Origin: an uncultured bacterium
GTDB lineage: Bacteria; Patescibacteriota; Minisyncoccia; UBA6257; 2-01-FULL-56-20
Reading direction: 5' to 3'
Length of the DNA: 52,838 nt
Assembly (NCBI GenBank): GCA_963745135.1
Contig: CAVUWW010000013.1
Coordinates: 1-52,838, forward strand
How positions within the stretch are numbered: the first letter of the stretch is position 1; each line of letters starts with the position of its first letter. Below the pieces are notes generated by a model, which did not search any database, had not been told where the DNA came from, and saw only the letters and a program-made list of their open reading frames with translations. Both the position numbers and the translations under genes were made by a program. This document shows, one piece after another, positions 4,205-41,259 of this stretch.

Positions 4205-4324
4205 AATGCGAATTTGCGAATGTATGCGAATGCCGCAAATGCCGAGGTGCGAATGCCGCGAATGATTCGCAAAATTCGCACCGCATTATTCGCAGCATTC
4301 GCACGCCATTCGCGGATTCGCATT
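4205..4324. repeat. inverted array hairpin, GCGAAT / ATTCGC units
   Basis: The left half holds about 6 GCGAAT-containing units and the right half about 6 ATTCGC units. The centre is gcgaatgattcgc. It lies between divergent comF and pilM. Confidence 0.8.
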
Positions 4325-4365: not shown

Positions 4366-5451
4366 ATGCAATCTTCTTTTAATCTTTTCCGGCGCACGTT
4401 TTCCGGCTCCTGCCTCGGCGTGGACATCGGTACGACTTCCATCAAGATTGTCGAAGTGGCGGGCGGCAAGGAGAAGCCGGCGGTCCTGAACTACGGGCTT
4501 TTGGAATCGAGCGGCTATCTTGCGCGGTCGAACCAGGCGTTCCAGACGAGCAGCTTAAAAATCTTCGAGGCGGAGGTCGCGGAGCTCTTAAGGGCGCTCG
4601 CGCGGTCGGTGCGGGCCGGGACCAAGAACGCGATCGCGTCCCTGCCGGTGTTCTCGGCGTTCACGACCGTGCTCGACTTCCCGCAAATGCCGCCGCAGGA
4701 GATTGAGCAGGCGCTCATTTTCCAGGCGCGGCAGTACGTGCCGTTGCCGCTTTCGGAAGTTTCGCTCGATTGGCTGAAGGTGGGCGAGTACGAGGACGAC
4801 AAGGGTTTCGCGCACCAGAAAATATTCCTGACTTCGATTCCCAACGAGCAGATAAAAAAATACCAGAATATGTTCGCCGCAGCCGGATTGCATCTGGTCG
4901 CGCTCGAGCTCGAAAGCTTGAGTTTGGCGAGATTGTTCGGCAACGATTCCACGCCCACAATCCTCGTGGACATCGGCAGCCGCTCGACGGACATCGTGTT
5001 CCTCGAGTCCGGCAATCTCGTCTGGAACGCGCAGAGCGATTTCGGCGGCGCGTCGCTCACGCAGGCCTTGGCCTCAAGCTTGGGCGTGAACCCGCTGCGC
5101 GCGGAGGAATTGAAGAAGGAGCGCGGCATCCTTGGCACCGGCCCAAGCTATGAGTTGTCCACAATCATGCTTCCGTTCGTGGATGTTATAATAAATGAGG
5201 TGAAGAAAGCCGATTTCGCTTACCGGCAGCAGTTCCCCGCCGCGAAAAAAGCGGAGCGGGTGATGCTCGCTGGCGGCGGCGCGAACTTGCTTGGCATCGA
5301 GAAATATTTCGAGCGCGAGTTCGGCGTCCCTGCAGTGAAGGCCGCGTCCTTCGTCAGGTTCGGCTATCCGCAGGAGATGGAGCCGCTCGTCCCCGAGCTG
5401 AATCCGCTGATGAGCGTGGCACTGGGGTTGGGGATGAGGAATTTCGTGTAG
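4366..5451 (+). CDS. pilM: type IV pilus assembly ATPase-fold protein PilM
   Basis: 361 aa with an actin-like fold signature CLGVDIGTTSIKIVEV and DIGSRSTDIVF. It is the first gene of the pilus operon. Confidence 0.85.
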   Translation: MQSSFNLFRRTFSGSCLGVDIGTTSIKIVEVAGGKEKPAVLNYGLLESSGYLARSNQAFQTSSLKIFEAEVAELLRALARSVRAGTKNAIASLPVFSAFTTVLDFPQMPPQEIEQALIFQARQYVPLPLSEVSLDWLKVGEYEDDKGFAHQKIFLTSIPNEQIKKYQNMFAAAGLHLVALELESLSLARLFGNDSTPTILVDIGSRSTDIVFLESGNLVWNAQSDFGGASLTQALASSLGVNPLRAEELKKERGILGTGPSYELSTIMLPFVDVIINEVKKADFAYRQQFPAAKKAERVMLAGGGANLLGIEKYFEREFGVPAVKAASFVRFGYPQEMEPLVPELNPLMSVALGLGMRNFV

Positions 5452-5549
5452 GCATACGAATGTACGAATCGGTACGAATATACGAATAGGAAATCAAAAA
5501 AATTAATCTCCCATTCGTATATTCGTAAAAATTCGTAAATTCGTATGCC
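5451..5549. repeat. inverted array hairpin, GGCATACGAAT...ATTCGTATGCC family
   Basis: 4 TACGAAT units, a loop, then 4 ATTCGTA units. It starts at the last base of the pilM stop codon and contains the next ATG (5545) in its last 5 nt. Confidence 0.85.
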
Positions 5550-6141: not shown

Positions 6142-6148
6142 TGAAGAA

Positions 6149-6201
6149 GGGTCTGGGGTCTAGGGTATAGTGAACCCCAAACCCCAAACCCCAAACCCTA
6201 C
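6149..6201. repeat. inverted array hairpin, GGGTCT/GGGTAT vs ACCCCAA units
   Basis: Sequence gggtctggggtctagggtatag-tg-aaccccaaaccccaaaccccaaaccctac. It fills the gap between stop 6141 and ATG 6204. Confidence 0.8.
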
Positions 6202-6812: not shown

Positions 6813-6816
6813 AGAA

Positions 6817-6902
6817 GGGTATGGGGTATAGGGGATAGGGTATAGTGAAGAAATTCCGTACCCTATACCCTATACCCTATGCCCTATGCCCTATACCCTA
6901 CC
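6817..6902. repeat. inverted array hairpin, GGGTATR / ACCCTAT family
   Basis: Left arm gggtatggggtataggggatagggtatag, loop tgaagaaattccg, right arm (taccctat/gccctat) x6. The ATG at 6904 follows 1 nt later. Confidence 0.85.
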
Positions 6903-6903
6903 A

Positions 6904-7203
6904 ATGGCAATCATTGTCGAAGAGGAAAAAACAAGCTCGGGGATCATCAGCTTTTTGGGCTGGGCGTCCATCATCGCGATCCTCGCCGTTGCGGCGTATT
7001 ACGGGTTCCTTGCGCCCGCGCCTCTGGTGGTCGTAGCCCCTCCCGCCGATTTGAATAACTTGCTTTCCATTTCAAGCGCCGGTTTGAACGCAAACAGTAT
7101 TTTGCAGGGCGCTGAATTCCAATCGCTTGCGCAACACGTGCCGGAGCCCTCCGCCACCGGTCCTGCGGGAGTCGGGAGAACGAATCCGTTTGTGGCTCCG
7201 TAG
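6904..7203 (+). CDS. small membrane protein in the pilus operon
   Basis: Start moved to MAIIVEEEK (ATG 6904), directly after the hairpin. One TM helix (IISFLGWASIIAILAVAAYYGF). Confidence 0.5.
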   Translation: MAIIVEEEKTSSGIISFLGWASIIAILAVAAYYGFLAPAPLVVVAPPADLNNLLSISSAGLNANSILQGAEFQSLAQHVPEPSATGPAGVGRTNPFVAP

Positions 7204-7204
7204 T

Positions 7205-7293
7205 AATCGCGAATATCGCGAATGAGCGCAAATAACGCGAATAAAACAAAACCACCATTCGCATTATTTGCTTTGATTCGCGTTATTCGCGAA
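7205..7293. repeat. inverted array hairpin, CGCGAAT / ATTCGCG units
   Basis: Left arm aatcgcgaatatcgcgaatgagcgcaaataacgcgaat, right arm attcgcattatttgctttgattcgcgttattcgcgaa. The ATG at 7301 is 7 nt downstream. Confidence 0.8.
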
Positions 7294-7300
7294 CACTCCT

Positions 7301-9030: not shown

Positions 9031-9150
9031 ACCAGCTACCAGCTGCTGGCGACCAGTCACCGATACTCATGGATTTGAGTTTTCATATGATACAATAAGA
9101 GTAATAATTTTGGATTTAGCTGGTAGCTGGTAGCTGGTAGCTGGTAGCTA
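9031..9150. repeat. inverted array hairpin, CCAGCTA / TAGCTGG units with a ~60-nt loop
   Basis: Left arm accagctaccagctgctggcgaccag. Right arm is (tagctgg) x4.7. The ATG at 9160 is 9 nt downstream. Confidence 0.8.
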
Positions 9151-10234: not shown

Positions 10235-10240
10235 GAGAAA

Positions 10241-10310
10241 GTTATCAGGTTATAAAGTTATCAGGTTATCAGGTAGGAATTTAACTTTAAAAACCTGATA
10301 ACTTGATAAC
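10241..10310. repeat. inverted array hairpin, GTTATCAG / CTGATAAC units
   Basis: Left arm gttatcaggttataaagttatcaggttatcaggt, right arm acctgataacttgataac. The ATG at 10319 is 8 nt downstream. Confidence 0.8.
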
Positions 10311-10318
10311 TTTCAACC

Positions 10319-11530
10319 ATGAAGTTCAAGTATCAGGCCCGAACCAAAGAAGGGGAGCTCCAAGTCGGCATCATTGACGCCGGCTCGCGCGACGCAGCTT
10401 TGCAGATTTTGGCGGGGCACGAGCTTTACACCTTGAGCGTCGAGACGGCAACGGCGCCGCAGTGGTACGACCGGATCGGGGAATTTTTCGGCCGCGTCAG
10501 GCGCCGGGATCTCGTCATCTTTTCGCGCCAGCTTGCGACGCTCCTCGAGGCGCGCCTGCCCTTGAACAACGCCTTGCGCGTGCTCCATGAGCAGACCGTG
10601 AACGCGCGGCTCAAGGAGGGGATTTTGCAGATGTCCCAGGACATTGACGCCGGGCTTTCGTTTTCGCAGGCGCTCGAGCACCAGGGGCGCATGTTCCCTT
10701 CATATTACATGGAGATGGTGCGGGCGGCGGAGGTGACAGGGAATCTTGCCGAGATATCGGGCTTCCTCGCCGATTACACGGAGCGCGAAGGCGACCTCGC
10801 GAGCAAGGCGTCTTCGGCGATGATCTATCCGGGCATCGTCCTTGGGCTTTTTCTCGTCGTCGGTTTCATCCTGCTCACATTCGTCTTTCCGCAGATTAAG
10901 CCGGTCTTCGACCAGAGCGGCGTGACGTTGCCGTGGTACACCGCGTTTTTCTTGGGGGCGGGCACTTTCATGCAGCAATGGTGGCCGGCGATAATTGTGG
11001 CGGCGTTCGTGCTTGGGGTTGTTGTCTTTGATTATTTCCGCACGCCCGAAGGCATTGCGCTGTTCGACGACCTGAAGATCCGCCTGCCGGTTTTGCAGAA
11101 AGTTTTTTTGCCGCTCCTCATGGCGCGGTTCGGGAATTCGGCGGAGCTTCTGATCCATGGCGGCGTCCCGCTCGCGCAAGCGCTCGAGATCATCAGCCAC
11201 ATGATGGGGAATGTCTTGTACGAGGACGTGGTGCACCAGGTTGCGGAGGACGTGCGGCAGGGGAAATTGCTATCGGAAAGTTTGGCGGACTACCCGCGCT
11301 ATTTCCCGATCATGGTGCCGCAGATGGTGTCGGTCGGCGAGACGACAGGAAAGATTGAGGAGATGTTTGGGCGTCTTTCGAAGATCTATACGCGCGAGGC
11401 AAACCAGACGATGGACAACCTGGTGGACCTCATCCAACCCATTCTCATGATTGGCATGGGCGCGATGGTGGGACTTTTGTTCGCATCAATTCTCGTGCCG
11501 CTCTACCAGCTGACGGCGAGCATACATTAA
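10319..11530 (+). CDS. pilC: type IV pilus platform protein PilC (T2SS F family)
   Basis: 403 aa with duplicated T2SSF-type domains and three hydrophobic segments. Confidence 0.9.
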   Translation: MKFKYQARTKEGELQVGIIDAGSRDAALQILAGHELYTLSVETATAPQWYDRIGEFFGRVRRRDLVIFSRQLATLLEARLPLNNALRVLHEQTVNARLKEGILQMSQDIDAGLSFSQALEHQGRMFPSYYMEMVRAAEVTGNLAEISGFLADYTEREGDLASKASSAMIYPGIVLGLFLVVGFILLTFVFPQIKPVFDQSGVTLPWYTAFFLGAGTFMQQWWPAIIVAAFVLGVVVFDYFRTPEGIALFDDLKIRLPVLQKVFLPLLMARFGNSAELLIHGGVPLAQALEIISHMMGNVLYEDVVHQVAEDVRQGKLLSESLADYPRYFPIMVPQMVSVGETTGKIEEMFGRLSKIYTREANQTMDNLVDLIQPILMIGMGAMVGLLFASILVPLYQLTASIH

Positions 11531-11534
11531 AGAA

Positions 11535-11747
11535 GGGTATGGGGGATAGGGTATAGGGTGAAGAGAAGAAAGAAGAATTTGCCCTGTGGATAACAAGAGA
11601 AGTTACGCGGTTTGACAATGATATACTTAAATAAATATCAAAAAGGTCGAGAAAGTTACTGAAAAATCAGATTAAAAAAAGAAAAGGGCTAGGAATTTTG
11701 GGCTTGGATTGAATATCTATACCCTATACCCTATACCCTATACCCTA
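11535..11747. repeat. GGGTATR / ACCCTAT inverted arrays separated by a ~155-nt A/T-rich spacer
   Basis: Left arm 11535..11560 and right arm 11717..11747, which is (ctatacc) x4. The pilin ATG at 11748 abuts the right arm. Confidence 0.75.
11612..11641 (+). promoter_or_regulatory. possible pilin promoter (TTGACA, 17-18 nt spacer, ATATCA/TATCAA)
   Basis: Perfect -35 TTGACA at 11612..11617 inside the spacer of the split hairpin. The -10 box is weak. Confidence 0.3.
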
Positions 11748-12271: not shown

Positions 12272-12295
12272 AGCCGGCAGAGATGCCGGTTTTTG
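12272..12295 (+). terminator. intrinsic terminator after the pilin gene
   Basis: Stem agccggc / gccggtt, loop agagat, then a T-run. Confidence 0.6.
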
Positions 12296-12303
12296 GTTGG
12301 ATT

Positions 12304-12394
12304 TTACGAAAGTACGAATACAGTACGAAAATACGAATATCCATCACAGTGCAGGTTATTCGTATTTTCGTAAATAATTCGTAATTTCGTAAAC
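12304..12394. repeat. inverted array hairpin, TACGAAW / WTTCGTA units
   Basis: Left arm ttacgaaagtacgaatacagtacgaaaatacgaatat, right arm ttattcgtattttcgtaaataattcgtaatttcgtaaa. Confidence 0.8.
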
Positions 12395-12398
12395 TAGG

Positions 12399-12404
12399 TA
12401 TAAT
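12399..12404 (+). promoter_or_regulatory. -10 box TATAAT, 6 nt before ATG 12411 (leaderless pilD candidate)
   Basis: Sequence ggTATAATaaaacaATG. Confidence 0.5.
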
Positions 12405-12410
12405 AAAACA

Positions 12411-13274
12411 ATGCCTTACGTCCTGCTCTTTGCGCTTGGTCTCTGCATCGGCAGCTTTTTGAACGTTGTCGCGCTGCGCTACGACGGCGAGCATTTTGTG
12501 TTCGACCCGAAAGTGATAGGCGGAAGATCCCATTGCCCGAAATGCGATCGCACGCTCCGTTGGTTTGAGTTGATTCCGATCGTGAGTTTCATCATCCAGC
12601 GCGCCAAATGCCGCGCTTGCCAAGCGCGCATCGGTTTGCGATATCCGGCTGTCGAGCTTTTGACCAGCTTGTTGTTTGTGGCGGTTCCGTGGCGCTTGGC
12701 GCAGCTTCCAGCTTCCAGCTTCCAGCTTCCAGTCGACATTCTTTGGATTGTTGCGTTTCTTATTCTCCTTCTTATCGCCTATATCGACATCCGGCTTGGC
12801 ATCATTCCGGATGAACTTGAAATAATGCTCGGCGTTTGCGCTTTTGGTATTGTTTTGATTTCTTCCCTAGCTGCTAGCTACTCGCCCCTCGCCCCTAATT
12901 TCTCCTTTCTCGGCGCTTTCGCGCCGATTTTCGGCTTCCAGCAAAACGTCTGGACTGCACGCATCATTGGCATGATTTTCGCTTTCGCGTTCTTTGAGTT
13001 GCTCGTGCTCGTGACGCGCGGCCGCGGCATGGGCGTGGGCGACGTGAAGCTCGCCCTGCCGCTCGGATTTCTTTTCGGCTGGCCGGATATTTTGATCGCC
13101 ATCATGTCCGCTTTCGTAGTTGGCGCCGCAGTCGGGGTTGTGAGCATCGCGGTCAAGTGGAAAAAAATGGGCGGCAATCTGCCTTTTGGGCCGTTTTTGG
13201 CTGCCGGCGCGGCGTTCGTCTTCTTTTTCGGGCTGCCGGTGGCGCAGTGGTATTTTCATTTGATGGGGATGTGA
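12411..13274 (+). CDS. pilD: prepilin peptidase PilD (A24 family)
   Basis: 287 aa with N-terminal CPKC..CRAC and catalytic Asp contexts GMGVGDVKL and LPFGPFL. Confidence 0.9.
   Translation: MPYVLLFALGLCIGSFLNVVALRYDGEHFVFDPKVIGGRSHCPKCDRTLRWFELIPIVSFIIQRAKCRACQARIGLRYPAVELLTSLLFVAVPWRLAQLPASSFQLPVDILWIVAFLILLLIAYIDIRLGIIPDELEIMLGVCAFGIVLISSLAASYSPLAPNFSFLGAFAPIFGFQQNVWTARIIGMIFAFAFFELLVLVTRGRGMGVGDVKLALPLGFLFGWPDILIAIMSAFVVGAAVGVVSIAVKWKKMGGNLPFGPFLAAGAAFVFFFGLPVAQWYFHLMGM
12703..12732 (+). repeat. intragenic tandem heptamer AGCTTCC x4.3 inside pilD
   Basis: Sequence agcttcc agcttcc agcttcc agcttcc ag, encoding QLPASSFQLP in the linker between the two PilD domains. Confidence 0.9.
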
Positions 13275-13280
13275 AGAAAT

Positions 13281-13374
13281 TTTCAGTTTTCAATTTCCAA
13301 TGGATGTTTCAGCGATGCAATGATGCAAACTTGAAACATTGGCTCATTGCTTCATCTATTGGAAATTGGAAATT
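13281..13374. repeat. nested inverted repeat (AATTTCCAAT / ATTGGAAATT units)
   Basis: Outer arms ttttcaatttccaatgg and tattggaaattggaaatt. Inner arms atgtttca and tgaaacat. Confidence 0.7.
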
Positions 13375-13982: not shown

Positions 13983-13989
13983 ATTTGAA

Positions 13990-14062
13990 GGGTATAGGGT
14001 ATGGGGTATAGGGTATAGTGAAACCCTAGACCCTAGACCCTAGACCCTAGACCCTAGACCCT
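13990..14062. repeat. inverted array hairpin, GGGTATR x4 / ACCCTAG x6
   Basis: Sequence gggtatagggtatggggtatagggtatag-tg-aaaccctag(accctag)x4 accct. The ATG at 14063 abuts the right arm. Confidence 0.9.
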
Positions 14063-14605
14063 ATGCAAAGTCAATCCTCACAATCCGGGCAATCGTTGAT
14101 CGAGGCCATGATTGCCATCAGTTTGCTCACCGTCGGTTTCATCGGCATCGCGGCGTTGCTCTCGCAGTCGCTCTATCTCACGCGCGTCATTTCCGACCAG
14201 ACGACGGCGACCTATCTTGCGTCCGAAGGCATTGAGCTTGCGAAGAACCTGATTGATCATGACGTGTATATGCACCTTGCGGGATTGGGAACCGGTTGGG
14301 GAACTTGCTTCAATATCAGCAATCCCGGGACGACCGAGATCGAGCTTGATTACACCTCGCTTGATTGCAGCAAGGCCTATTTCGCCGGAGATTTTTTGCA
14401 GTTCGATCCGGTGACCGGACTTTATGGCTACAGCTCTGATCTGCCGGCTGCGGACAATCCCATCCCGACCAAGTTCACGCGTGAGATTGACATTAATTTG
14501 CAGGGCAACGAGATTACCGTGAATTCCAAAGTCAGGTGGAACACCGGCGCGTTCACGTCGCAGAGCGTCAATCTGGAAGATCATTTTTACAATTGGAGGC
14601 AGTAA
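14063..14605 (+). CDS. pilin-like protein (PilV-like minor pilin)
   Basis: N-terminus MQSQSSQSGQSLIEAMIAISLLTVGFIG, a prepilin-type hydrophobic N-terminus. Confidence 0.75.
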   Translation: MQSQSSQSGQSLIEAMIAISLLTVGFIGIAALLSQSLYLTRVISDQTTATYLASEGIELAKNLIDHDVYMHLAGLGTGWGTCFNISNPGTTEIELDYTSLDCSKAYFAGDFLQFDPVTGLYGYSSDLPAADNPIPTKFTREIDINLQGNEITVNSKVRWNTGAFTSQSVNLEDHFYNWRQ

Positions 14606-14612
14606 TTTTTAA

Positions 14613-14671
14613 GGGTATGGGGTATAGGGTATAGTGAAACCCTAAACCCTAAACCCTAAACCCTAAACCCT
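14613..14671. repeat. inverted array hairpin, GGGTATR x3 / ACCCTAA x5
   Basis: Sequence gggtatggggtatagggtatag-tg-aaaccctaa(accctaa)x3 accct. The ATG at 14672 abuts the right arm. Confidence 0.9.
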
Positions 14672-15277
14672 ATGCAACGCCAATCTCCACAATCCGGCCA
14701 GTCCCTCATCGAGCTTCTCGTCGCCATCGGCCTCTTCTCTATCCTCTTTGCCATTGCGGGCGGGGGATTCGTGAACGCGCTCCATGCCCAGAACCAGGTT
14801 TCGGCGGAGATGGCGGCGGAAAGCAACGTCGGCATCGCGATTGAGGAGATGGCGCGGGAGATGCGGACCGGCTACCTTTTCTGCCACGATTTGAACGGCG
14901 TTTCAACGTGCGACACGAGCGATCCCTCGTACAATCGCCACTGCACATTCGATGCGGCAACCCAACTGCTCACCTGCTCCGACCTTGAATATTACGACGC
15001 GAACGGCGAGAAAATCGATTACGTCCTGAAGGGCGGCGTCCTGGAACGCGGAGACAACGATGCGTACCAGCCGATCACGGGGGATAATGTGACCGTGCGC
15101 TCGCTCTCATTCGTCCTTCACGGCAATACGGAAGGCGACCATTGGAACCCGCGGATCACCGTCACGATCGGCATTGCGCCGAACAATTCGGGCGTCTCAT
15201 GGAACACGGTTGACTTCCAGACCACGGTGAGCGCAAGGGAGATTGATTGCACGGCGGGAGCGAGCCCGAGCTGCTGA
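14672..15277 (+). CDS. pilin-like protein (PilW-like minor pilin)
   Basis: N-terminus MQRQSPQSGQSLIELLVAIGLFSILFAI. Confidence 0.75.
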   Translation: MQRQSPQSGQSLIELLVAIGLFSILFAIAGGGFVNALHAQNQVSAEMAAESNVGIAIEEMAREMRTGYLFCHDLNGVSTCDTSDPSYNRHCTFDAATQLLTCSDLEYYDANGEKIDYVLKGGVLERGDNDAYQPITGDNVTVRSLSFVLHGNTEGDHWNPRITVTIGIAPNNSGVSWNTVDFQTTVSAREIDCTAGASPSC

Positions 15278-15363
15278 AATCCTTAATCCTTAATCGTTAA
15301 TCCTTGACTAAAAATTTCGATTCCCTAGCGTTGTAATTGTTTAAGGATTAAAGATTAAGGATT
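15278..15363. repeat. inverted array hairpin, CCTTAAT / ATTAAGG units, between convergent genes
   Basis: Left arm aatccttaatccttaatcgttaatcctt, right arm aaggattaaagattaaggatt. It exactly fills the gap between stop 15277 and stop 15366. Confidence 0.8.
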
Positions 15364-15365
15364 GT

Positions 15366-16478
15366 TCAAATCTCCATCGTCCCATCCGCTTCCAGTTTGT
15401 ATTTTTTCTTTCTTAAAAACGCCATATATCCCGCGGCGCCGATCATGGCGGCGTTGTCGAGGTTGTATTTGAAATCGGGGACGAGAAATTGCACGCCAAT
15501 GAGTCCGGCCATGCGCTCCATGCTTTTTCGGAGTGCCTTATTCGCCGCGACGCCACCGCAGAGGATAATTGATTCCGCCGCGCATTCTTCAGCGGCTCGG
15601 CGTGTTTTCGCGACGAGCACGTCGATGGCGGCCTGTTGGAAGGAAGCGGCAACATCTGAGAGGCGGGAGGCGGGAGAAGGGAGAGGGGAGGAGAAATTCA
15701 TCTTCCGTCTTCCGTCTCCCATCTCCCTTAGGTAATAAAGAACCGCCGTCTTCAATCCCGAAAAACTAAAATCGTAATTCTTCTGGTCCAGCATCGGGCG
15801 CGGGAAAGTGATGGCGAATGGATTGCCTTTTTTCGCGAGTTTTTCGATTTCCGGCCCGCCGGGATAGGGAAGGTCGAGCAACCTCGCCACTTTATCGAAT
15901 GCCTCGCCGGCCGCGTCGTCGCGCGTCTCGCCGAGCCGCTCCCATTTCGAGAACGATTCCATGCGGAGCAAAATCGTGTGTCCGCCGGAGACGATGAGCG
16001 CGATCGCGGGGAACAGGGACGAGGGGCGAGTAGTGAGTAGGGAGGTATAACCCTTTAAGGATCTTGACGGAAGCAAGAAACTGTAAAGATGGCCTTCGAG
16101 ATGGTTCGCGCCGATGAGACGAGGGAGAGGAGAGAGGGGAGAAGGGAGAAGGGATTTCCGTATTTTTTTTGCAAATTCAATTCCTGTCCACAGTGCAGGT
16201 TCTAGCCCTGGTCCTACAGTAACTGCAATAATATCAATTTTTTTCTCCATCCCTCCTCCCTCCTCCCCTCTCAACCTCTCCCAAAGCAATGGCAAATTCT
16301 TCAAATGTTCCCGCTTTGCCAAATTCGGAACCACGCCGCCGAACGGTCGGTGGATCTTGATTTGCGAGGCGACCAGATTTTTTAAAATCTTAAAACGCGG
16401 ATTCTTCAATCCGCCGGAAGCGTCGAGCAAAGCGATGCCCGTCTCGTCGCAGCTCGTTTCGATGGAGAGGATTTTCAT
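15366..16478 (-). CDS. tsaD: tRNA N6-threonylcarbamoyladenosine synthesis protein TsaD
   Basis: 370 aa with KILSIETSCDETGIAL, VGPGLEPAL and NHLEGH. It carries low-complexity inserts encoded by purine/pyrimidine heptamer arrays. Confidence 0.9.
   Translation of the reverse strand: MKILSIETSCDETGIALLDASGGLKNPRFKILKNLVASQIKIHRPFGGVVPNLAKREHLKNLPLLWERLRGEEGGGMEKKIDIIAVTVGPGLEPALWTGIEFAKKIRKSLLPSPLSPLPRLIGANHLEGHLYSFLLPSRSLKGYTSLLTTRPSSLFPAIALIVSGGHTILLRMESFSKWERLGETRDDAAGEAFDKVARLLDLPYPGGPEIEKLAKKGNPFAITFPRPMLDQKNYDFSFSGLKTAVLYYLREMGDGRRKMNFSSPLPSPASRLSDVAASFQQAAIDVLVAKTRRAAEECAAESIILCGGVAANKALRKSMERMAGLIGVQFLVPDFKYNLDNAAMIGAAGYMAFLRKKKYKLEADGTMEI
15661..15728. repeat. intragenic inverted arrays (GGGAGAR / TCTYCCS heptamers) inside tsaD
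   Basis: Left arm aggcgggaggcgggagaagggagaggggaggag, loop aaattca, right arm tcttccgtcttccgtctcccatctccct. Translated in frame as ..GDGRRKMNFSSPLPSPAS... Confidence 0.75.
16121..16282. repeat. intragenic purine array and pyrimidine array flanking the conserved TsaD GPG core
   Basis: Purine array gagggagaggagagaggggagaagggagaaggga at 16121..16154. Pyrimidine array tctccatccctcctccctcctcccctctcaacctctccc at 16244..16282. Confidence 0.65.
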
Positions 16479-16485
16479 AGGGTAT

Positions 16486-16597
16486 AGCCACTAGCCAATA
16501 GCCACTAGTGAATGATTAGCCACTAGTACCTAGCCAATAGTGAGTTTAATTCCTTTTAGAGTTTACGCTAGTCGCCAGTGGCTAACAACTAGTGGCT
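16486..16597. repeat. inverted array hairpin, GCCACTA / TAGTGGC units, upstream of tsaD
   Basis: agccactagccaatagccactagtg and tagccactagtacctagccaatagtg face gctagtcgccagtggctaacaactagtggct. On the tsaD strand the last arm ends 7 nt before ATG 16478. Confidence 0.8.
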
Positions 16598-16812
16598 CTA
16601 TTTTATCCACCGGAAACATTTGACTCGCCGCCTTTGGTTTGCTAACCTAAAAGCAGTAGGCATCCCACCCCGTGCGCGGGGAATCAGGCGACTGCCATTC
16701 ACTCCAGCGGCGATTCGGCGATTTTTCGGAGAAAACGCCTATGATTGTGCTTACGTCCCACGTTCAGGTAAACGGCGCGCCTTAGCGACGAAGAAACAAG
16801 CGCTTCGGCTTA

Positions 16813-16975: not shown

Positions 16976-17015
16976 GCGTCCGCCCAGAAGAAATTCCGGC
17001 GGGCGCATTTTTTTT
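16976..17015 (+). terminator. intrinsic terminator abutting the tRNA-Glu 3' end
   Basis: 9-bp stem gcgtccgcc / ggcgggcgc with one G.U pair, then T8. Confidence 0.55.
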
Positions 17016-17016
17016 G

Positions 17017-17091
17017 TACCGCCATCGGGATTCGAACCCGAGTTCCCGCCGTGAAAGGGCGGTGTCCTAGGCCGGGCTAGACGATAGCGGC
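17017..17091 (-). tRNA. tRNA-Glu (anticodon UUC)
   Basis: Hand-folded cloverleaf: acceptor GCCGCUA/UGGCGGU, anticodon stem CCGCC/GGCGG with loop CUUUCAC, T-arm UCGGG-UUCGAAU-CCCGA. CCA is not encoded. Confidence 0.85.
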
Positions 17092-17168
17092 ATCTCGGAA
17101 TTATAGGAACAAATTTTCAATGAGGCAACACGGAGCATTACGCGAAGCTGCGCTTCGCGTCGTCCAGA

Positions 17169-17435
17169 CCCCATTTCCATAATATCTCCAGCCCGCGTTG
17201 CGAGCAATTTTGCCCGAGTGCCAGGCGCGGCGAAGGAGACAATGGCTCACGCCATGGCTCCGAGTCCCAACGCCGCGATTCGGGCGAAATCGCCGCAACC
17301 CTCCGGGATTTGCCCAAACGCCGCAATGGCTGCGTTGCCTTGGGCTCGCGGTACCGAAAGGTACGGCTTCGCCCTCGCGCCTTGCCCTTGCGGCGCTTGG
17401 GTCGAATCGCGGGCGGAGAGATTATGGAAATGAGG
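17169..17435 (+). ncRNA. unclassified structured RNA, copy A (paralog of 23196..23465)
   Basis: 21-bp closing helix (17169..17189 with 17415..17435). At least 5 further helices change compensatorily relative to copy B. G.U pairs favour the plus strand. Confidence 0.7.
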
Positions 17436-17545
17436 TCACCACTAGACGATGGGAGCCGTCTTCAGGAGTTTAATAAATTTCAGGCGTTCCCGCAACTTTT
17501 TTTTATTGTTGGCAGGGCACGAAATTCATAATACAATTGATTTAT

Positions 17546-18314
17546 ATGGCAAGAGTCATCGCGGTTTGCAACCAGAAGGGCGGTGTGGGGAAGACCACGA
17601 CCTGCACTTCACTCGGCGCTTACCTCGCGCTCGCCGGACGACGGGTGCTTTTGATTGACTTTGACCCGCAGGCGAACGCGAGCTCGGCTTTCGGGGCACC
17701 ATTATGCGAACGTGATGAAGAGCATCTATCACGGCATCATCGGTGCGGCGTCGCCCGAGGAGATCACGAAGCCGACCGCGATCTACAATTACCATTTGAT
17801 CCCCGCCGCGCCGCATTTGGCGGGGATGCTCATCGAGCTTGTGGGCGAGCCGGAGCGGGAATACTTTTTGCGGAAGTTCGTGAACCGCGTGCGGCACGAG
17901 TACGATTACATTCTGATTGACCTGCCGCCGAGCTTGAGCTTGCTCACCGTGAACGGGCTTGTCGCCGCGGACGAGGTCATCATCCCGGTTCAGGCGGAGT
18001 ATTACAGCTTGGAGGGCATCGGGCAGCTGCTCGAAACGATTGAGCTTATCAGGAATAATTTGGGGCATCCGATCCGCGTTTCGGGCGCGCTGATTACGAT
18101 GTATAATAAGCGGGAGCACTTGAGCCGCGAAGTGGCGAAGAACCTACGCGACCATTTCCCGCATCGCGTGTTCGAAGTTGAGATTCCGCGCAGCATTGCG
18201 CTCGCTGAAGCCCCAAGCTACGGCATGCCGATCCTGCTCTACCGCCCGGATTCGAACGGTGCGGCGGCGTATAAAAAATTGGCGGAGGAAATTATAAGAG
18301 AAGAAAGGGCATAG
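17546..18314 (+). pseudogene. parA: chromosome partitioning ATPase ParA/Soj, interrupted by a +1 frame break
   Basis: [18 protein letters not shown] (deviant Walker A) is in one frame and [14 protein letters not shown]... to the end is in the +1 frame. Deleting one G of the GGGG run at 17693..17696 fuses them. Confidence 0.8.
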
Positions 18315-18358
18315 GGTGCAGAACTCTTAACCCCAGACCCTAAACCCCAGACCCTAAA
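18307..18358. repeat. inverted array hairpin, GGGCATAGGGTG / ACCCYAR units
   Basis: The loop gcagaactctt is shared with the element at 30484. The left arm overlaps the parA stop and the right arm abuts the parB ATG at 18359. Confidence 0.75.
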
Positions 18359-19414
18359 ATGCTAGGAAAAGGTTTGGAATCATTGATTCCCCAAAAAAGC
18401 GGCGGCAACGGCGACAATAACGACAGTCATGACGACGGGCAGATTTCCGTGCCGCAAGACGTGAATTCAAGTCTGGCGCCTGTGGATGAGCCGGAGGACA
18501 TGGGTCTCGGGTCTAGGGTCTCGGGTCTAGGGGAAGAGAAAAAATCAGAAACCCTAAACCCAAGACCCCAGACCCTAAACCCTAAGCCCGAACAAATTTT
18601 CGGTTCGATATTCCAGATTGAAGTTGACAAGATCTCGCCGAACCCGGACCAGCCGCGGCGGCATTTCGACGAGACGGCTTTGCACGACCTTGCGCGTTCC
18701 ATCCGCGAGTTCGGTTTTCTCCAGCCGCTCGTAGTCTCGAAAATCGAAAAGGAATCGCCGACGGGCATTGACGTCGAATACCAGCTCATCGCCGGCGAAC
18801 GGCGTTTGCTTGCGGCGAAATTGCTTGGCTTGCGGCTCGTGCCTGCCATTATCAGGAACGTCCATCTCGAGCGTGAAAAATTGGAGCTTGCCGTCATCGA
18901 GAACATCCAGCGCGAGGACTTGAATCCCATCGAGACCGCGCACGCGTTCCAGCGGCTGCAGGAAGAGTTTCGCATGACCCAGCGCGAGATTGCGGCGAAG
19001 CTCGGCAAGTCGCGGGAAGTTGTCGCGAATACCGTGCGGCTGCTCGACCTGCCGGAATATATCCAGGAGGCGGTCCAGAAAGGGGATCTGTCCGAAAGCC
19101 ATGCGCGCTTGCTGCTTTCGATCGGCGATCCGGGCGCGCAGAAAAGGTTGTTCGACGACATTTCCCTGAACCGCCTCACGACGCGCGATGTGAAGGAGCG
19201 CGTGAAGCAGATTGCAAAGCCACGCGAGCCGCGCGAAGGAGCGGAAATCTCGCCGGAGCTGAAAGCCATGCAGGAGTCATTGAGTTCAGCCCTCGGTGCG
19301 CCGGTCGAGATCCATAAAGGAGCGAACACCGGAAAGATCACGATTGTATTTTATTCGCAGGAAGAGCTGGAGAACATTTTGCAGAAATTGAAAAGCGGGG
19401 AGGGAAATCAATAA
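18359..19414 (+). CDS. parB: chromosome partitioning protein ParB/Spo0J
   Basis: 351 aa with N-terminal GKGLESLIP, ParB box ISPNPDQPRRHFDE and LIAGERRLLAAK. It carries an in-frame repeat-element insert. Confidence 0.9.
   Translation: MLGKGLESLIPQKSGGNGDNNDSHDDGQISVPQDVNSSLAPVDEPEDMGLGSRVSGLGEEKKSETLNPRPQTLNPKPEQIFGSIFQIEVDKISPNPDQPRRHFDETALHDLARSIREFGFLQPLVVSKIEKESPTGIDVEYQLIAGERRLLAAKLLGLRLVPAIIRNVHLEREKLELAVIENIQREDLNPIETAHAFQRLQEEFRMTQREIAAKLGKSREVVANTVRLLDLPEYIQEAVQKGDLSESHARLLLSIGDPGAQKRLFDDISLNRLTTRDVKERVKQIAKPREPREGAEISPELKAMQESLSSALGAPVEIHKGANTGKITIVFYSQEELENILQKLKSGEGNQ
18502..18589. repeat. GGGTCTM / ACCCTAA-type hairpin element inserted in frame inside parB
   Basis: Left arm gggtctcgggtctagggtctcgggtctagggg, loop, right arm aaaccctaaacccaagaccccagaccctaaaccctaagccc. 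Translated as GLGSRVSGLGEEKKSETLNPRPQTLNPKP. Confidence 0.85.
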
Positions 19415-25722: not shown

Positions 25723-25811
25723 GGCATACGAATGTACGAATTTTTACGAATATACGGACGGGAAACTCAATCTCTTATTCGTATATTCGTACCGATTCGT
25801 AAATTCGCATG
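25723..25811. repeat. GGCATACGAAT...ATTCG hairpin element (near-identical to 27513..27600)
   Basis: Shares both arms and the loop gggaaaYtcaatctc with the copy at 27513. The ATG at 25809 lies in the last arm unit (attcgcATG). Confidence 0.85.
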
Positions 25812-26357
25812 ACCCTCTCAGATAAAACCATGAATAAACCACTATCTATAGCAATTTTCATCATCCTCGTCATTGCGGTCATTGCGGGCGCGGTTTGGTA
25901 CAGCAATAATGTTTTGCAGGGCAATATGGTGAACGGCATCGGGCAAGCGGCAAGCAGCACGGGACAGCCGGCGGGGAATATAAATCAAGCGACAAGCGCT
26001 AACGCTACAACCACAAACATGAACCAAGGCCAATTGCAGATTACGGACCTCGTCGTGGGCACGGGGACGGTGGCGGAGAACGGCGACACGGTGAACGTGC
26101 TTTACACGGGGACGCTCGACGACGGTACTGTGTTCGACGCTTCGTCCATGCACGGCAACCAGCCGTTCAGCTTCACCCTCGGCGCGGGACAGGTCATCAA
26201 GGGATGGGATGAGGGCGTGCTTGGCATGAAGGTTGGCGGCAAGCGCGAGCTCGTCATCCCGCCTTCGCTTGGCTATGGCGCGCAGGGAGCCGGTAATACC
26301 ATCCCGCCGGACGCGACGTTGCATTTTACGGTTCAGCTTTTGTCAGTCGGGCAATAG
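25809..26357 (+). CDS. FKBP-type peptidyl-prolyl cis-trans isomerase with N-terminal membrane anchor
   Basis: Motifs GDTVNVLYTGTLDDGTVFDAS, FTLGAGQVIKGWDEGVLGMKVGGKRELVIPPSLGYG. An alternative start is at 25830. Confidence 0.85.
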   Translation: MTLSDKTMNKPLSIAIFIILVIAVIAGAVWYSNNVLQGNMVNGIGQAASSTGQPAGNINQATSANATTTNMNQGQLQITDLVVGTGTVAENGDTVNVLYTGTLDDGTVFDASSMHGNQPFSFTLGAGQVIKGWDEGVLGMKVGGKRELVIPPSLGYGAQGAGNTIPPDATLHFTVQLLSVGQ

Positions 26358-26468
26358 TTCTCCGTGCGCAAATCTAAATGGCTAACGATGGCCGTCTTCA
26401 AGATTGGGGAAGAAGGCGGCCATCGTTTTTTTCTCGTCCCGCGTCTGTGGGGGTCTGGTTTGCGCGCG
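26358..26468 (+). repeat. 3'-flank element, third member (TTCTCCGTGCGCAAATC ... GGTTTGCGCGCG clamp)
   Basis: Same 5' boundary as 35861 (TTCTCCGYGCGCAAATC). The inner hairpin is the terminator at 26384..26432. Confidence 0.65.
26384..26432 (+). terminator. intrinsic terminator after the FKBP gene
   Basis: Stem aacgatggccgtcttc / gaaggcggccatcgtt, then T7. Confidence 0.75.
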
Positions 26469-26506
26469 AAGCTAAATAAAAATGCCGCCAGAGGGTTGCG
26501 GCTGCT

Positions 26507-27031
26507 TTAGTGATTCGCTTGCGCGAGGAGTAGGTCGCCGTATGACACTGAAATCAAATCGCTTTCGCGGATTTCCAAAAGCGAAAGATATGTTCGGCAT
26601 TGTTTGAGCAGCTGTTCTCGCCCAATGGTTCCGTCGCTGTCAATCGCTTCGATTTCCACGAATGTTCCCAAACTCTCGACGACATCAAGGTGGAATTTTA
26701 CGTTCCCGATGAAATATATCTCCCGCACCTTATCCACCACGACCAGAACGCCCAGGGAGCGGACCAAAATTTCTTTCAGAGAAAATTGAGGATTCGACGC
26801 GAAAAGAATGACGTTCGATTCCTTTGGCCCTTCTTGGTCGGTGCGTTTGTAAAAGACAAGAAAATTCTCAATGTTCCCTTCGCGCAATTTCATCCTGCCG
26901 TCATTCACCCGGAAATACGTGTCGATTTGGCGGTCGGTGCCTTTGAAGTCAGCTCCTTGAGACCTGAGGAAATCCCGAACTTTTTTGTGGCTGCCGCAAC
27001 GAGCTTTGATTTCAACGTTAAGGTGCCTCAT
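26507..27031 (-). CDS. CYTH-domain protein (class IV adenylate cyclase / triphosphatase-like)
   Basis: 174 aa with N-terminal ExExK motif (NVEIKAR), then DTYF, KLREG and FVEIEA strands typical of CyaB/CYTH. Confidence 0.75.
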   Translation of the reverse strand: MRHLNVEIKARCGSHKKVRDFLRSQGADFKGTDRQIDTYFRVNDGRMKLREGNIENFLVFYKRTDQEGPKESNVILFASNPQFSLKEILVRSLGVLVVVDKVREIYFIGNVKFHLDVVESLGTFVEIEAIDSDGTIGREQLLKQCRTYLSLLEIRESDLISVSYGDLLLAQANH

Positions 27032-27116
27032 GGCAGTTCTTTACAAGAATGGTTGCAAAAGAGAATGGGATTGTCAATGGAATACGAATTGCGGCGCTTG
27101 ATGTATAATTGAATAA

Positions 27117-27512: not shown

Positions 27513-27600
27513 GGCATACGAATGTACGAATAGTTACGAATATACGAATGGGAAATTCAATCTCTTATTCGTATATTCGTACCGATTCGTAAATTCGTAA
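27513..27600. repeat. GGCATACGAAT...ATTCGTAA hairpin element
   Basis: Near-identical to 25723..25811. It starts 1 nt after stop 27512, and ATG 27609 is 8 nt downstream. Confidence 0.85.
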
Positions 27601-29806: not shown

Positions 29807-29929
29807 GGCATACGAATTTACGAATCGGTACGAATATACTAATAAGATTAGTAGCGGAACCATTCCAAACATTCGTGTACCCATTCTGAATTATTCGTAT
29901 ATTCGTACAAATTCGTACATTCGTATGCC
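29807..29929. repeat. GGCATACGAAT...ATTCGTATGCC hairpin element (long-loop copy)
   Basis: Same termini as 5451..5549. The lepB ATG at 29925 lies inside the terminal ATTCGTATGCC. Confidence 0.85.
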
Positions 29930-30479: not shown

Positions 30480-30483
30480 AGAA

Positions 30484-30560
30484 GGGTATAGGGTTTCGGG
30501 TATAGGGTATAGGGTGCGGAACTCTTGACCCTAGACCCTAGACCCTTGACCCTAGACCCT
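30484..30560. repeat. inverted array hairpin, GGGTATA / ACCCTAG family
   Basis: Left arm gggtatagggtttcgggtatagggtatagggtg, loop cggaactctt, right arm gaccctagaccctagacccttgaccctagaccct. The ATG at 30565 follows 4 nt later. Confidence 0.85.
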
Positions 30561-34889: not shown

Positions 34890-34899
34890 ATTGTTAGAA

Positions 34900-34966
34900 G
34901 GGTATAGGGTCTAGGGTATGGGGTATAGGATACCCTAAACCCTAAACCCTAAACCCTAAACCCTAA
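34900..34966. repeat. inverted array hairpin, GGGTATR x4 / ACCCTAA x5
   Basis: Sequence gggtatagggtctagggtatggggtatagg-a-taccctaa(accctaa)x4. The secF ATG at 34967 abuts the right arm. Confidence 0.9.
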
Positions 34967-35860
34967 ATGTTAAACATCACCGGCAACAAAAAAATATGGT
35001 TCACGCTCTCCGGCATTTTGGTCGGCTTGGCCGTCATTGCGATGGTCGGCTTTGGCTTCAAGGAGAGTGCCGAGTTCAAAGGTGGCACGCTGTGGGAATT
35101 TTCGATCCCGAACGCGAATGTCTCGCTCACGGAAGTGCAGACGTTCTTCGCGCAGAATTTGAACGTCCCGGACGCACAGATCACCTTGGACACATCGAGC
35201 GGCGATTTTATGGCGCGGCTTGACGTGCTTGACGAGGCGACGCACCAGAAATTCGCGAGCATATTGCAGAGCCAATGGCCAACCTTCCAGGAGTTGAGCT
35301 TCCAGTCCATCGGGCCGTCGGTCGGCGCGTCGGTCGAGAAGAATGCGATTATCGCGATTATCCTCGTCATCATCGGCATCTCGCTCTATATCGCCTATGC
35401 GTTCCGCAAGACCTCGCGTCCGGTGAGCTCGTGGAAGTATGGTTGGATCACGCTCTTGACGCTCTTCCATGACGTTTCCATCCCGGCGGGCATGCTCGCG
35501 ATCCTCGGCCACTTTTTGAATGTCCAGATTGACACCAACTTCATCGTCGCGCTTCTCGTCGTGATGGGCTTCTCCGTGCACGACACGATCGTCGTCTTTG
35601 ACCGCATCCGCGAGAACCTGACGCTGAACCGTGGGAAGGAGAAGTTCGAGACGGTCGTGAACACGAGCGTGAACCAAACCCTCGCGCGTTCCATTAACAC
35701 CTCGCTCACGCTGATTCTCGTGCTCATTGCGCTTTATTTTGTCGGTCCCGCCGACCTCCAATATTTCGTCTTGACCTTGCTCGTCGGCGTCACGACCGGC
35801 ATCTACTCGTCCATCTTCATAGCGAGCCCGGCGCTGCTGCTCGTGAGTCCGAAAGAATAG
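34967..35860 (+). CDS. secF: protein translocase subunit SecF
   Basis: 297 aa with six hydrophobic segments and the motif HDTIVVFDRIREN. Confidence 0.9.
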   Translation: MLNITGNKKIWFTLSGILVGLAVIAMVGFGFKESAEFKGGTLWEFSIPNANVSLTEVQTFFAQNLNVPDAQITLDTSSGDFMARLDVLDEATHQKFASILQSQWPTFQELSFQSIGPSVGASVEKNAIIAIILVIIGISLYIAYAFRKTSRPVSSWKYGWITLLTLFHDVSIPAGMLAILGHFLNVQIDTNFIVALLVVMGFSVHDTIVVFDRIRENLTLNRGKEKFETVVNTSVNQTLARSINTSLTLILVLIALYFVGPADLQYFVLTLLVGVTTGIYSSIFIASPALLLVSPKE

Positions 35861-40281: not shown

Positions 40282-41259
40282 ATGCTCATAGACGACGTAG
40301 CCATCAAAATATCGGCGGGACACGGCGGCAAAGGCGCGGCGGTTTTTAATTCGACGCTCATGGCGCTGGGGCCGGCGGGCGGTTCGGGCGGGCGTGGCGG
40401 GAACGTTCTAGCGGTCGGGGTTTCTGATATCAGCGCGCTGAACCAGTTTCGTTTCAAAAAGGAATTTAACGCGGAAAATGGCCGAGACGGACGGGGACAG
40501 TTCCGCGACGGGCATGTCGGAAAAGATTTGGTGATGAAGCTGCCGGTCGGCACGGTGGTATATAAATTGGGACATGGGACAGGGGACATGGGACGGGGTA
40601 TTGAAATCACGCACGTCGGCGAAACGGTTACGCTCGCGAAAGGCGGTCTCGGCGGCAAGGGGAATTTCCAGTTCCGCTCGGCGACGAACACCTCGCCCAC
40701 GCAGTTCCAATCCGGCTTGCCGGGCGAAAGCTTCGATTTGCGGTTGGAGCTGAAGCTCATCGCGGATGTCGGCTTTGTCGGTCTGCCGAACGCCGGCAAG
40801 TCAAGCATGCTGAATATGCTTACGAACGCGTCGAGCAAGGTGGCGAACTATCCGTTCACCACGCTCGAGCCGAATTTGGGCGTCTATTATGAATTGATTC
40901 TCGCCGACATTCCGGGACTTATCGAAGGATCGTCAGCGGGCAAGGGACTTGGCGTAAAATTTCTGCGTCACGTTGAGCGTACGAAAATCCTCTTCCATTT
41001 CGTTTCCGCCGAATCATCCGATCCGGAAAAGGATTACAAAACGATCCGCCGCGAGCTTGGCGCGTATAATAAAGAGCTTCTCGAAAAAACCGAATATCTT
41101 CTCCTCTCGAAAAGCGACCTCGCGGAGAAAAAAGAATTGAAGGAGAAGCTTGAGATCCTCAAAAAATTGAACCCGACCGCAATCGCGGTTTCCGTGAACG
41201 ATCCAGAAAGCGTGAAGAAGGTGGAGAAGATATTAAATCAGATCAAGGTGGAAAAGTGA
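40282..41259 (+). CDS. obg: GTPase Obg/CgtA
   Basis: 325 aa with a Gly-rich Obg fold N-terminus (GHGGKGAA, GGSGGRGG), G1 GLPNAGKSS and G3 DIPGLIEG. Confidence 0.9.
   Translation: MLIDDVAIKISAGHGGKGAAVFNSTLMALGPAGGSGGRGGNVLAVGVSDISALNQFRFKKEFNAENGRDGRGQFRDGHVGKDLVMKLPVGTVVYKLGHGTGDMGRGIEITHVGETVTLAKGGLGGKGNFQFRSATNTSPTQFQSGLPGESFDLRLELKLIADVGFVGLPNAGKSSMLNMLTNASSKVANYPFTTLEPNLGVYYELILADIPGLIEGSSAGKGLGVKFLRHVERTKILFHFVSAESSDPEKDYKTIRRELGAYNKELLEKTEYLLLSKSDLAEKKELKEKLEILKKLNPTAIAVSVNDPESVKKVEKILNQIKVEK
40569..40596 (+). repeat. intragenic tandem heptamer GGGACAK x4 inside obg
   Basis: Sequence gggacat gggacag gggacat gggacgg, encoding LGHGTGDMGRG. It also fits a four-G-run quadruplex pattern. 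Confidence 0.9.

Follow-up and report, generated by a model that had tools for sequence, protein, structure and literature searches.

Heptamer-armed hairpins in a patescibacterial genome share their build with cassettes that carry PF05635 genes

Gaps between the genes of one uncultured bacterium (Patescibacteriota; Minisyncoccia) carry hairpins whose arms are tandem arrays of a heptamer, and the heptamer often differs between gaps, which raises the question of what process writes one architecture in so many sequences. The hairpin examined most closely here lies between pilB and pilT, at positions 9031–9149 of a 52,838-nt stretch of DNA (contig C13 of assembly GCA_963745135.1; hereafter, the window). 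Tandem heptamers have been described in cyanobacteria since about 1990 and have been catalogued for decades there, in Xanthomonas and elsewhere, with neither origin nor mechanism attached, and the intervening sequences (IVSs) of rRNA genes, with their small open reading frame (ORF), are equally unexplained. The two puzzles meet in this genome: an ORF of the IVS type, PF05635, lies between inverted heptamer arrays, and gene-less elements of the same build occupy gene junctions, protein loops and rRNA helices. On balance, we favour a reading in which the hairpins are gene-less, foldback-type copies of selfish IVS-type cassettes, the complete members of which carry a PF05635/TIGR02436 gene.

The hairpin between pilB and pilT

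The 5′ arm of the hairpin at 9031–9149 is degenerate (CCAGCTA CCAGCTG CTGGCGA CCAGTCA), the 3′ arm is a perfect (TAGCTGG)×4.7 array, and the two enclose an AT-rich loop of roughly 60 nt. The stem measures about 26 bp, compared with the roughly 25–30 bp expected of terminal inverted repeats of the IVS type. The fold predicted for the RNA has −54.3 kcal/mol (z = −6.4) and that for the DNA −25 kcal/mol (z = −4.8), and in both cases none of 200 shuffled sequences equalled it. The unit TAGCTGG occurs at a single locus in the whole genome. No ORF lies within the 60-nt loop, so the hairpin is at most a gene-less derivative of a PF05635 cassette, and its site is the pilB/pilT gap, not an rRNA variable helix. 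A search of the window against Rfam at the gathering score returned three tRNAs only and no match to a hairpin. For the hairpins in general, we also considered whether 3′ arms serve as promoters of leaderless mRNAs and rejected the idea, as the spacing between TAnnnT hexamers and the ATG, read by eye, is inconsistent.

Heptamer arrays across the genome

The genome (G000; other G numbers denote related genomes of the order, which are 0.5–1.3 Mb in size) is represented by 753 kb in 55 contigs and is 77% complete. Its PilB has a relative in an uncultured Candidatus Saccharibacteria genome, which, with the small size of the related genomes, places the bacterium in the candidate phyla radiation. 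Tandem Repeats Finder, with a threshold of at least 2.8 copies, detected 276 period-7 arrays in it and 2 in one shuffled copy of the genome. Arrays of periods 6, 8 and 9 number 19, 66 and 43, and the families of period 8–10 consist of a 7-nt core plus a spacer, as in TACGAAT. By heuristic gene calls, 172 of the period-7 arrays are non-coding and 102 are coding. Adjacent arrays are overwhelmingly inverted (77 pairs, against 3 direct pairs), and among 260 non-coding arrays 115 have an inverted partner within 250 nt and only 5 a direct one. Genome-wide, the inverted arrays make about 89 hairpins. Copy number peaks at 4 units, and the lengths of perfect period-7 runs show a second mode at 30–32 nt, corresponding to 4.3–4.6 units. 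Where both flanking genes were called, 62 of 78 hairpins lie between co-directional genes, with median distances of 5 nt past the stop codon and 8 nt ahead of the next start.

A preliminary description of the window, drawn from its letters, had named six hairpins, and all six are present at or near the positions given for them. It had held that the architecture is conserved and the unit free, which is borne out by 90 distinct canonical heptamer units in this genome and by orthologous gaps that carry unrelated units in four genomes. It had also set rarity and confinement to this region as grounds for abandoning the idea; the scan found the elements to be common genome-wide. The accompanying claim that each gap has its own unit stands in part: TAGCTGG is indeed confined to one locus, whereas four other named units occur at 7–18 loci (GTTATCAG and CCTTAAT at 7 each, GCCACTA at 12 and AATTTCC at 18) and the GCGAAT hairpin belongs to a family of 19.

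Clustering of the 89 hairpins by blastn yielded 16 groups, with 22, 19, 14, 8, 6, 5, 3, 2, 2 and 2 members and six singletons. The larger families are AGGGTAT/ACCCTAx (22 members), TACGAAT with GCGAAT (19), AATTTyC (14), AATCCTT (8), GTTATCAG (6), GGGAGG (5) and TAGCCAC (3). Members of a family have in common the order of their variant units, the lengths of their spacers, their loops and their termini, indicating that they were copied as whole elements, and their loops are found in both orientations relative to genes. The ATCGCGAAT family, which here occupies the g4→pilB gap, is present in many copies in G002, a genome of a different genus, where it occupies the pilT→pilC gap. A 17-mer of the largest family (family-0) has 52 copies here, and 13 of 201 genomes of the order contain it: none of the 10 other genomes of the same taxonomic family does, whereas four genomes of other families have it 6–13 times. 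Loci read from two of these four, G132 and G083, both of 42% GC, have the same 5′ arm, and in G132 also the same type of loop. Such a patchy distribution fits DNA that moves horizontally. The preliminary description had argued for a generating mechanism, or for selection on structure and periodicity, rather than the spread of one mobile sequence. That contrast does not hold, since the majority of hairpins fall into dispersed families with arm order, loop and termini in common, one of them scattered over distant taxonomic families and another (ATCGCGAAT) placed in different gaps across genera.

We also looked for a long element of the TACGAAT family that might carry a transposase. The only pair of TACGAAT arms set 1.1 kb apart bounds a palindrome on contig C41 (11356–12452), in which one half codes for a membrane protein of 127 aa and the second is a degenerate inverted copy; it encloses this small gene and not a transposase, and the candidate was rejected.

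PF05635 genes lie between heptamer arms

All three PF05635/TIGR02436 genes in this genome are bracketed by inverted heptamer arrays. The gene on contig C3 has (GAAGGAA)n upstream and (TTCTTCC)n downstream; on contig C4 the end of the gene lies at the contig start and is followed by (CTCCCGC)×4; and the gene on contig C44 lies between arms of the AGCGACC and GCTGGxx types. The C44 cassette is inserted at approximately position 70–86 of a 16S rRNA gene (minus strand; 16990–17715, locus L125), and the same 16S gene holds a second insert, a gene-less hairpin of the GTTATCAG family (16991–17082).

The arrangement recurs in related genomes, 21 of 30 of which have PF05635 genes. Complementary flanks with a score of at least 15 were found at 17 of 24 PF05635 genes from 20 genomes; the arms are 23–40 nt long, and the best internal period is 7 in nearly all 17 flank pairs. 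Among control genes of the present, repeat-rich genome, 18 of 558 (3%) reach the same score, so that the flanks of PF05635 genes are enriched 20-fold (Fisher p = 6e-18). Gene-carrying and gene-less elements also resemble each other in their units. In G001, a gene-carrying cassette (locus L138) and the gene-less hairpin of the g1→g2 gap are both made of GGAACAx units; the cassette arms of G016 and G006 resemble the TAGCCAC family, and those of G021 the GGGT family. Across the eight genomes sampled, heptamer density follows PF05635 copy number (Spearman 0.80), a statistic that is only indicative, since these genomes are related; the three at background density (G004, G020 and G030) are all without a PF05635 gene.

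The product of the C3 gene belongs to the four-helix-bundle proteins of TIGR02436; it matches Xanthomonas campestris XCC0516 (PDB 2GSC; E = 3e-17) and is weakly similar to Avd of diversity-generating retroelements. A dependence on reverse transcriptase, with the Avd-like protein acting beside such an enzyme, is not supported by co-occurrence: several genomes with 2–4 PF05635 genes have no reverse-transcriptase match.

Arrays change in place and occur inside genes

A contig of another assembly is 98.9% identical to the window over 5.5 kb. The only multi-base differences in its hairpins are the loss of two ACCCTAG units (14 nt) and of one AAACCCT unit (7 nt), both of them in 3′ arms, in an assembly that calls for some caution, as it has many single-base indels. 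The change of unit number between close genomes that the preliminary description had thought worth looking for is thus seen, and it takes the form of whole units. In the pilus operon, gaps that correspond across four genomes are either occupied by hairpins of unrelated units or free of hairpins, and among close relatives the orthologous gaps are short, with no hairpin.

Approximately 100 period-7 arrays lie within confident coding regions; most are perfect and about 30 nt long. Their hosts, from a reading of the sequence, include PilD, SecA, ArgRS (two arrays), LeuRS, IleRS, RelA, Obg and a phosphoenolpyruvate (PEP)-utilising enzyme. In other genera the same coding sites hold arrays of other units, with little net change in length. 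The SecA site has TATACCC/TAGACCC here, with the variant units in blocks (2 + 2), and GAAACCC in G001; the second ArgRS site has CAAGCTC here, a full hairpin in G001 and GGCAAAG in G002; and the LeuRS site has ACCCCAG here, AGAAATG in G002 and AGCGACA in G014. In G017, the LeuRS loop has a 17-aa insert with a GC-rich palindrome (locus L104) where the array sits in the present genome. The ArgRS gene of G001 (locus L096) combines two different adjacent arrays at one site with an in-frame full hairpin at another. Because the same sites carry other units in other genera, they are hot spots at which arrays persist or recur while the units turn over.

Origin of the hairpins

The process that we favour on balance would run as follows. 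The ends of a cassette would be inverted arrays of about four heptamers, forming stems of roughly 28–32 bp, and complete cassettes would carry the small four-helix-bundle gene PF05635/TIGR02436, the '23S rRNA intervening-sequence protein'. Elements would have settled at tolerant sites, namely stop-to-start junctions, the variable loops of proteins (in frame, mostly as single arms) and the variable helices of rRNA. Once settled, the arms would be altered by slippage of whole units, and their units would be homogenised; each family, and finally each site, would then acquire a heptamer of its own, giving the same architecture in unrelated sequence. We infer that gene-carrying cassettes gave rise to the gene-less hairpins, and not that the gene landed in hairpins already present. 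RNase III cuts the intervening sequences of Coxiella, Leptospira and Salmonella, and by analogy the RNase III encoded in this genome presumably cuts the stems on transcripts; in mRNA, such cutting would be a side effect of the elements and not their purpose.

A more specific proposal, which we consider quite unlikely, is that the arrays are cis-sites of the PF05635 protein, whose solved relatives are homopentamers. One subunit would then read each 7-nt unit, setting both the period of 7 and the number of 4–5 units (30–32 nt). The pair of protein and array would drive the cassette's copying or insertion and would act in trans on gene-less hairpins and solo arrays as well. If this were true, the heptamers of cyanobacteria, Xanthomonas and Beggiatoa would be footprints of one undescribed system of mobility or array writing.

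Several observations weigh against a cassette origin. The hairpin at 9031–9149 has no gene and a unit that is unique in the genome, and its likeness to the C44 cassette arms (common GCGACCAG and GTAGCTGG) is weak and was judged by eye. GGGTAT, the gene-less family with the most members (at least 22 copies), is without a gene-carrying partner in this 77%-complete genome. PF05635 proteins that are 50–60% identical often have unrelated arms, and co-variation between protein and arm unit, considered as a possible link between the two, is weak (rho = 0.19). G017 has a moderate density of 13 arrays per 103 kb and no PF05635 gene, and the genomes behind the co-occurrence counts are related and not independent. 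Nor is it obvious that the approximately 100 solo arrays within coding regions copy a cassette. They replace sequence at orthologous sites with little change in length, and they point to an array-writing or homogenising process outside the cassette model. The analysis found neither a transposase nor a target-site duplication nor a pair with an empty site. Finally, the direction of derivation could be the reverse, with the gene inserting into the loops of existing hairpins.

Among the alternatives, we judge it unlikely that the hairpins are purely a mutational by-product. In the absence of MutS-type repair, slippage would amplify heptamers and intrastrand template switching would make the inverted partner; nothing would be mobile, and PF05635 genes would end up in the loops or prefer them. 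Much of what was seen inside individual arrays agrees with such a process: the 90 units with their long tail of singletons, TAGCTGG included, the whole-unit differences between strains, the variant units that occur in blocks, as in SecA, the orthologous arrays that differ in unit at constant length, and the greater homogeneity of 3′ arms over 5′ arms (36 versus 18, p = 0.0045). Slippage cannot, however, independently yield families of 14–22 copies with common non-repetitive loops, termini and variant order, nor does it account for one family scattered over distant genomes of different GC content or for the 20-fold enrichment of complementary flanks at PF05635 genes, and the sharp preference for period 7 and the 30–32-nt mode are unexpected from generic slippage. 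MutS domain V (PF00488) was found neither in G000 nor in 29 of 30 relatives, the sole match coming from a 2-Mb bin with 9% contamination. This agrees with the by-product account, but MutS is missing from heptamer-poor and heptamer-rich genomes alike; its absence therefore does not discriminate, and we rejected the loss of mismatch repair as the cause.

It is very unlikely that the hairpins are selected RNA devices of operons (processing or stability signals, terminators or translation-control stems) in which structure and periodicity are kept while the sequence drifts. Their position from stop to start and the great stability of their stems would suit such a role, as would the presence of RNase III and the lack of a visible Shine–Dalgarno sequence in most such gaps (read by eye); the clade also apparently uses leaderless-type promoters, so that each gene may be its own transcription unit. 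Nevertheless, hairpins occupy co-directional, convergent and divergent gaps to a similar extent (14.3%, 9.3% and 10.3%), close relatives have short, hairpin-free gaps at the orthologous positions, loops face both ways relative to the genes, and the same arrays are found inside coding regions and rRNA. Terminator-like sites number 22, with 20.5 expected, and none of them is an array hairpin; no array hairpin has a T tail, and in the g8→pilD gap a conserved canonical terminator adjoins the hairpin. On the occupancy of the gap types, the lack of T tails and this neighbouring terminator, we rejected a role as terminators. Nor did the strand test detect selection at the RNA level: G:U-compatible mismatches number 60 in the sense and 43 in the antisense direction, a bias that is not significant (p = 0.11).

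Dispersed intergenic palindromic families of about 60–140 nt per element might also suggest repetitive extragenic palindromes (REPs), bacterial interspersed mosaic elements (BIMEs), REP doublets forming hairpins (REPINs) or ordinary MITEs (miniature transposable elements with inverted repeats) that a classical transposase, with its gene at another place in the genome, would move, but this is extremely improbable, given that the Y1 domain of the REP-associated tyrosine transposase (RAYT; PF01797) has 0 matches in the 77%-complete genome while six control genomes give matches, that no target-site duplications were recognised, that the arms have a 7-nt periodicity which those classes lack, and that one 753-kb genome holds at least 16 groups and 90 units. 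Identity with a REP/BIME family and its transposase, which the preliminary description had allowed for as an outcome, is rejected on the lack of a RAYT/Y1 match in the 77%-complete genome. Of the features of a MITE, inverted ends are present and no duplication was recognised at the borders, and the only gene-bearing relatives of the hairpins carry PF05635, not a known transposase.

Comparison with known systems

The design of the hairpins recalls two elements of other hosts. Drosophila foldback elements have long inverted arms of tandem sub-repeats, and the palindromic elements of Rickettsia enter genes for housekeeping proteins in frame. The likeness is one of design only, as hosts, sizes and sequences differ.

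The IVS of the Coxiella 23S rRNA gene has a 28-bp terminal stem, an S23p (PF05635) ORF, tandem heptamers just inside its 5′ end whose copy number varies between strains, and an RNase III site where the first stem repeat begins; the S23p protein of Xanthomonas is stated in the same study to be homopentameric (PMC4990558). With the ORF-carrying IVSs of Coxiella burnetii and Leptospira the present cassettes share a PF05635 ORF enclosed by an inverted-repeat stem of about 28 bp, and with that of Coxiella they share stem heptamers of strain-variable number, seen here as whole-unit differences of 14 and 7 nt (PMC4990558). The C44 cassette, like an IVS, lies in a variable helix of rRNA, although the host is 16S rRNA here and 23S rRNA there. 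The systems differ further in that most copies here are gene-less and are found in gaps between protein genes or, in frame, within such genes, and in that one genome holds dozens of arm families. Excision from the transcript by RNase III is a feature of IVSs, and the present genome encodes this enzyme.

The GGGAATC arrays of Xanthomonas mostly have four units, are mainly intergenic between co-oriented genes, form 70–75 convergent inverted pairs and are not at the same genes in close species; the study that describes them also treats the GGGGA(C/T)T repeats of Nostoc and the short tandemly repeated repetitive (STRR) heptamers of cyanobacteria, and it draws no link to PF05635 cassettes (PMC4692102). 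These repeats resemble the present arrays in their 7-nt tandem units, their mode of about four copies, their mostly intergenic location and their inverted pairs, and X. campestris has both GGGAATC arrays, with 70 inverted pairs (PMC4692102), and the PF05635 protein XCC0516. Xanthomonas and Nostoc genomes, however, have one or a few G-rich units, whereas here there are 90 units of any composition. In view of the heptamers of Xanthomonas (PMC4692102) and of the Coxiella IVS (PMC4990558), the statement in the preliminary description that this organisation is not a described repeat class was too strong. In the literature searched, we found no paper that links heptamer repeats in general to PF05635 cassettes.

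REP/BIME elements, and REPINs with RAYT, are likewise short, dispersed palindromic repeats in the gaps of compact genomes, but they are without internal tandem periodicity and form one or a few families per genome (PMC3116915), and RAYT was not found here. The TAACTGA repeats of marine Beggiatoaceae occur in 2–6 copies a few nucleotides upstream of start codons and are patchily distributed (PMC4679880). They share with the present arrays the heptamer period, the position near starts and the patchiness; they differ in having a single unit and in being nearly all direct.

With an IVS-type ORF set between heptamer arrays and gene-less builds beside it, several questions become testable. Do the arrays bind the four-helix-bundle protein, or are they propagated by it; by what route do elements of this sort spread through genomes of less than 1 Mb with almost no classical transposons; and what happens to the transcripts of operons whose junctions are nearly all 30-bp stems? 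In practice, the elements break short-read assemblies and insert in 16S rRNA genes, and so affect surveys of candidate phyla. Logan assemblies that cover the window at about 25780–27565 illustrate the former: one contig of this species (L110) has hairpins at both ends, and a shorter one (L111) stops in the downstream hairpin, as would be expected of repeats that fragment short-read assemblies.

Other features of the window

Table 1 Hairpins and heptamer arrays in the window, with positions counted from its first nucleotide
Feature	Position	Strand	Units and context
Hairpin	4206..4323		ATGCGAAT sub-family; groups with the 19-member TACGAAT/GCGAAT family
Hairpin	5451..5549		TACGAAT family; each arm with four 7-nt cores set apart by 1, 3 and 1 nt; spans stop to start
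Hairpin	6148..6198		AGGGTCT / AACCCCA; GGGT-type family
Hairpin	6816..6900		AGGGTAT / TACCCTA; largest family
Hairpin	7202..7298		ATCGCGAAT family; g4→pilB gap
Hairpin	9031..9149		Between pilB and pilT; 3′ arm stops 10 nt ahead of the pilT ATG
Hairpin	10237..10322		GTTATCAG / CTGATAAC; period 8; 7 loci
Hairpin	11534..11747		AGGGTAT ... CTATACC arms; loop of about 157–161 nt
Hairpin	12303..12393		TACGAA family; between the canonical terminator (12273–12294) and the pilD −10 box
Solo perfect (CAGCTTC)×4.4 array	12702..12732	+	Inside pilD; length unchanged compared with orthologues
Hairpin	13278..13374		AATTTCC / GGAAATT; 18 loci
Hairpin	13989..14063		AGGGTAT ×4 / ACCCTAG ×6; two 3′ units fewer in the near-identical strain
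Hairpin	14612..14672		AGGGTAT ×3.3 / AAACCCT ×5; one 3′ unit fewer in the near-identical strain
Hairpin	15278..15363		AATCCTT / AAGGATT; between convergent genes
Inverted arrays AGGGAGA / CTCCTCC	16116..16282		Within heuristic ORF 15366–16478 (minus strand)
Hairpin	16483..16600		TAGCCAC / GTGGCTA; 12 loci; related arms bracket PF05635 genes in G016 and G006
Arrays ACCCCAG / GGGTCTx / AAACCCT	18330..18589		At the start of and inside ORF 18359–19414
Hairpin	25726..25810		TACGAAT family
Hairpin	27517..27600		TACGAAT family
Hairpin	29810..29926		TACGAAT family
Hairpin	30483..30560		AGGGTAT / GACCCTA
Hairpin	34899..34967		AGGGTAT / ACCCTAA; terminates at the next ATG
Solo (TGGGACA)×3.9 array	40568..40594	+	Inside obg; +5-aa insertion compared with four orthologues

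Two entries of Table 1 touch genes whose reading can be extended. In the near-identical strain, the stretch that matches ORF 15366–16478 is called as two TsaD-domain genes (PF00814). The TGGGACA unit of the obg array is also present within the gene for the PEP-utilising enzyme, on contig C16.

The pilC→g8 gap contains a perfect DnaA box (TGTGGATAA = TTATCCACA) at 11585–11593, within the hairpin loop, and CTGTGGATAAC is present too in the orthologous gap of G001. After g8 stands a canonical intrinsic terminator with a GC stem and a run of T (12273–12294); its position is kept in G001, G017 and G002, beside a hairpin that varies. Further on, a −10 box (TATAAT) lies 6 nt ahead of the pilD ATG, with no Shine–Dalgarno sequence (12399–12413). 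The same geometry of −10 box and ATG is found in several orthologous gaps of G017 (pilus gaps; locus L037) and of G001, and leaderless mRNAs may be widespread in the clade.

Some 3′ arms (13989–14672 and 34899–34967) are perfect CCCTAAA runs, the plant-type telomere repeat; the likeness is probably a coincidence of a unit made of G3/C3 plus A/T spacers. Elsewhere in the genome, a small nuclease gene of the GIY-YIG type, recognised by sequence motif, lies on contig C49 (12078–12365) with a palindromic repeat of another, GC-rich kind (GTCATCCCGACGAAGGTCGGGA...) on its flanks, and repeats similar to this palindrome adjoin positions 29230–29892 of contig C10.

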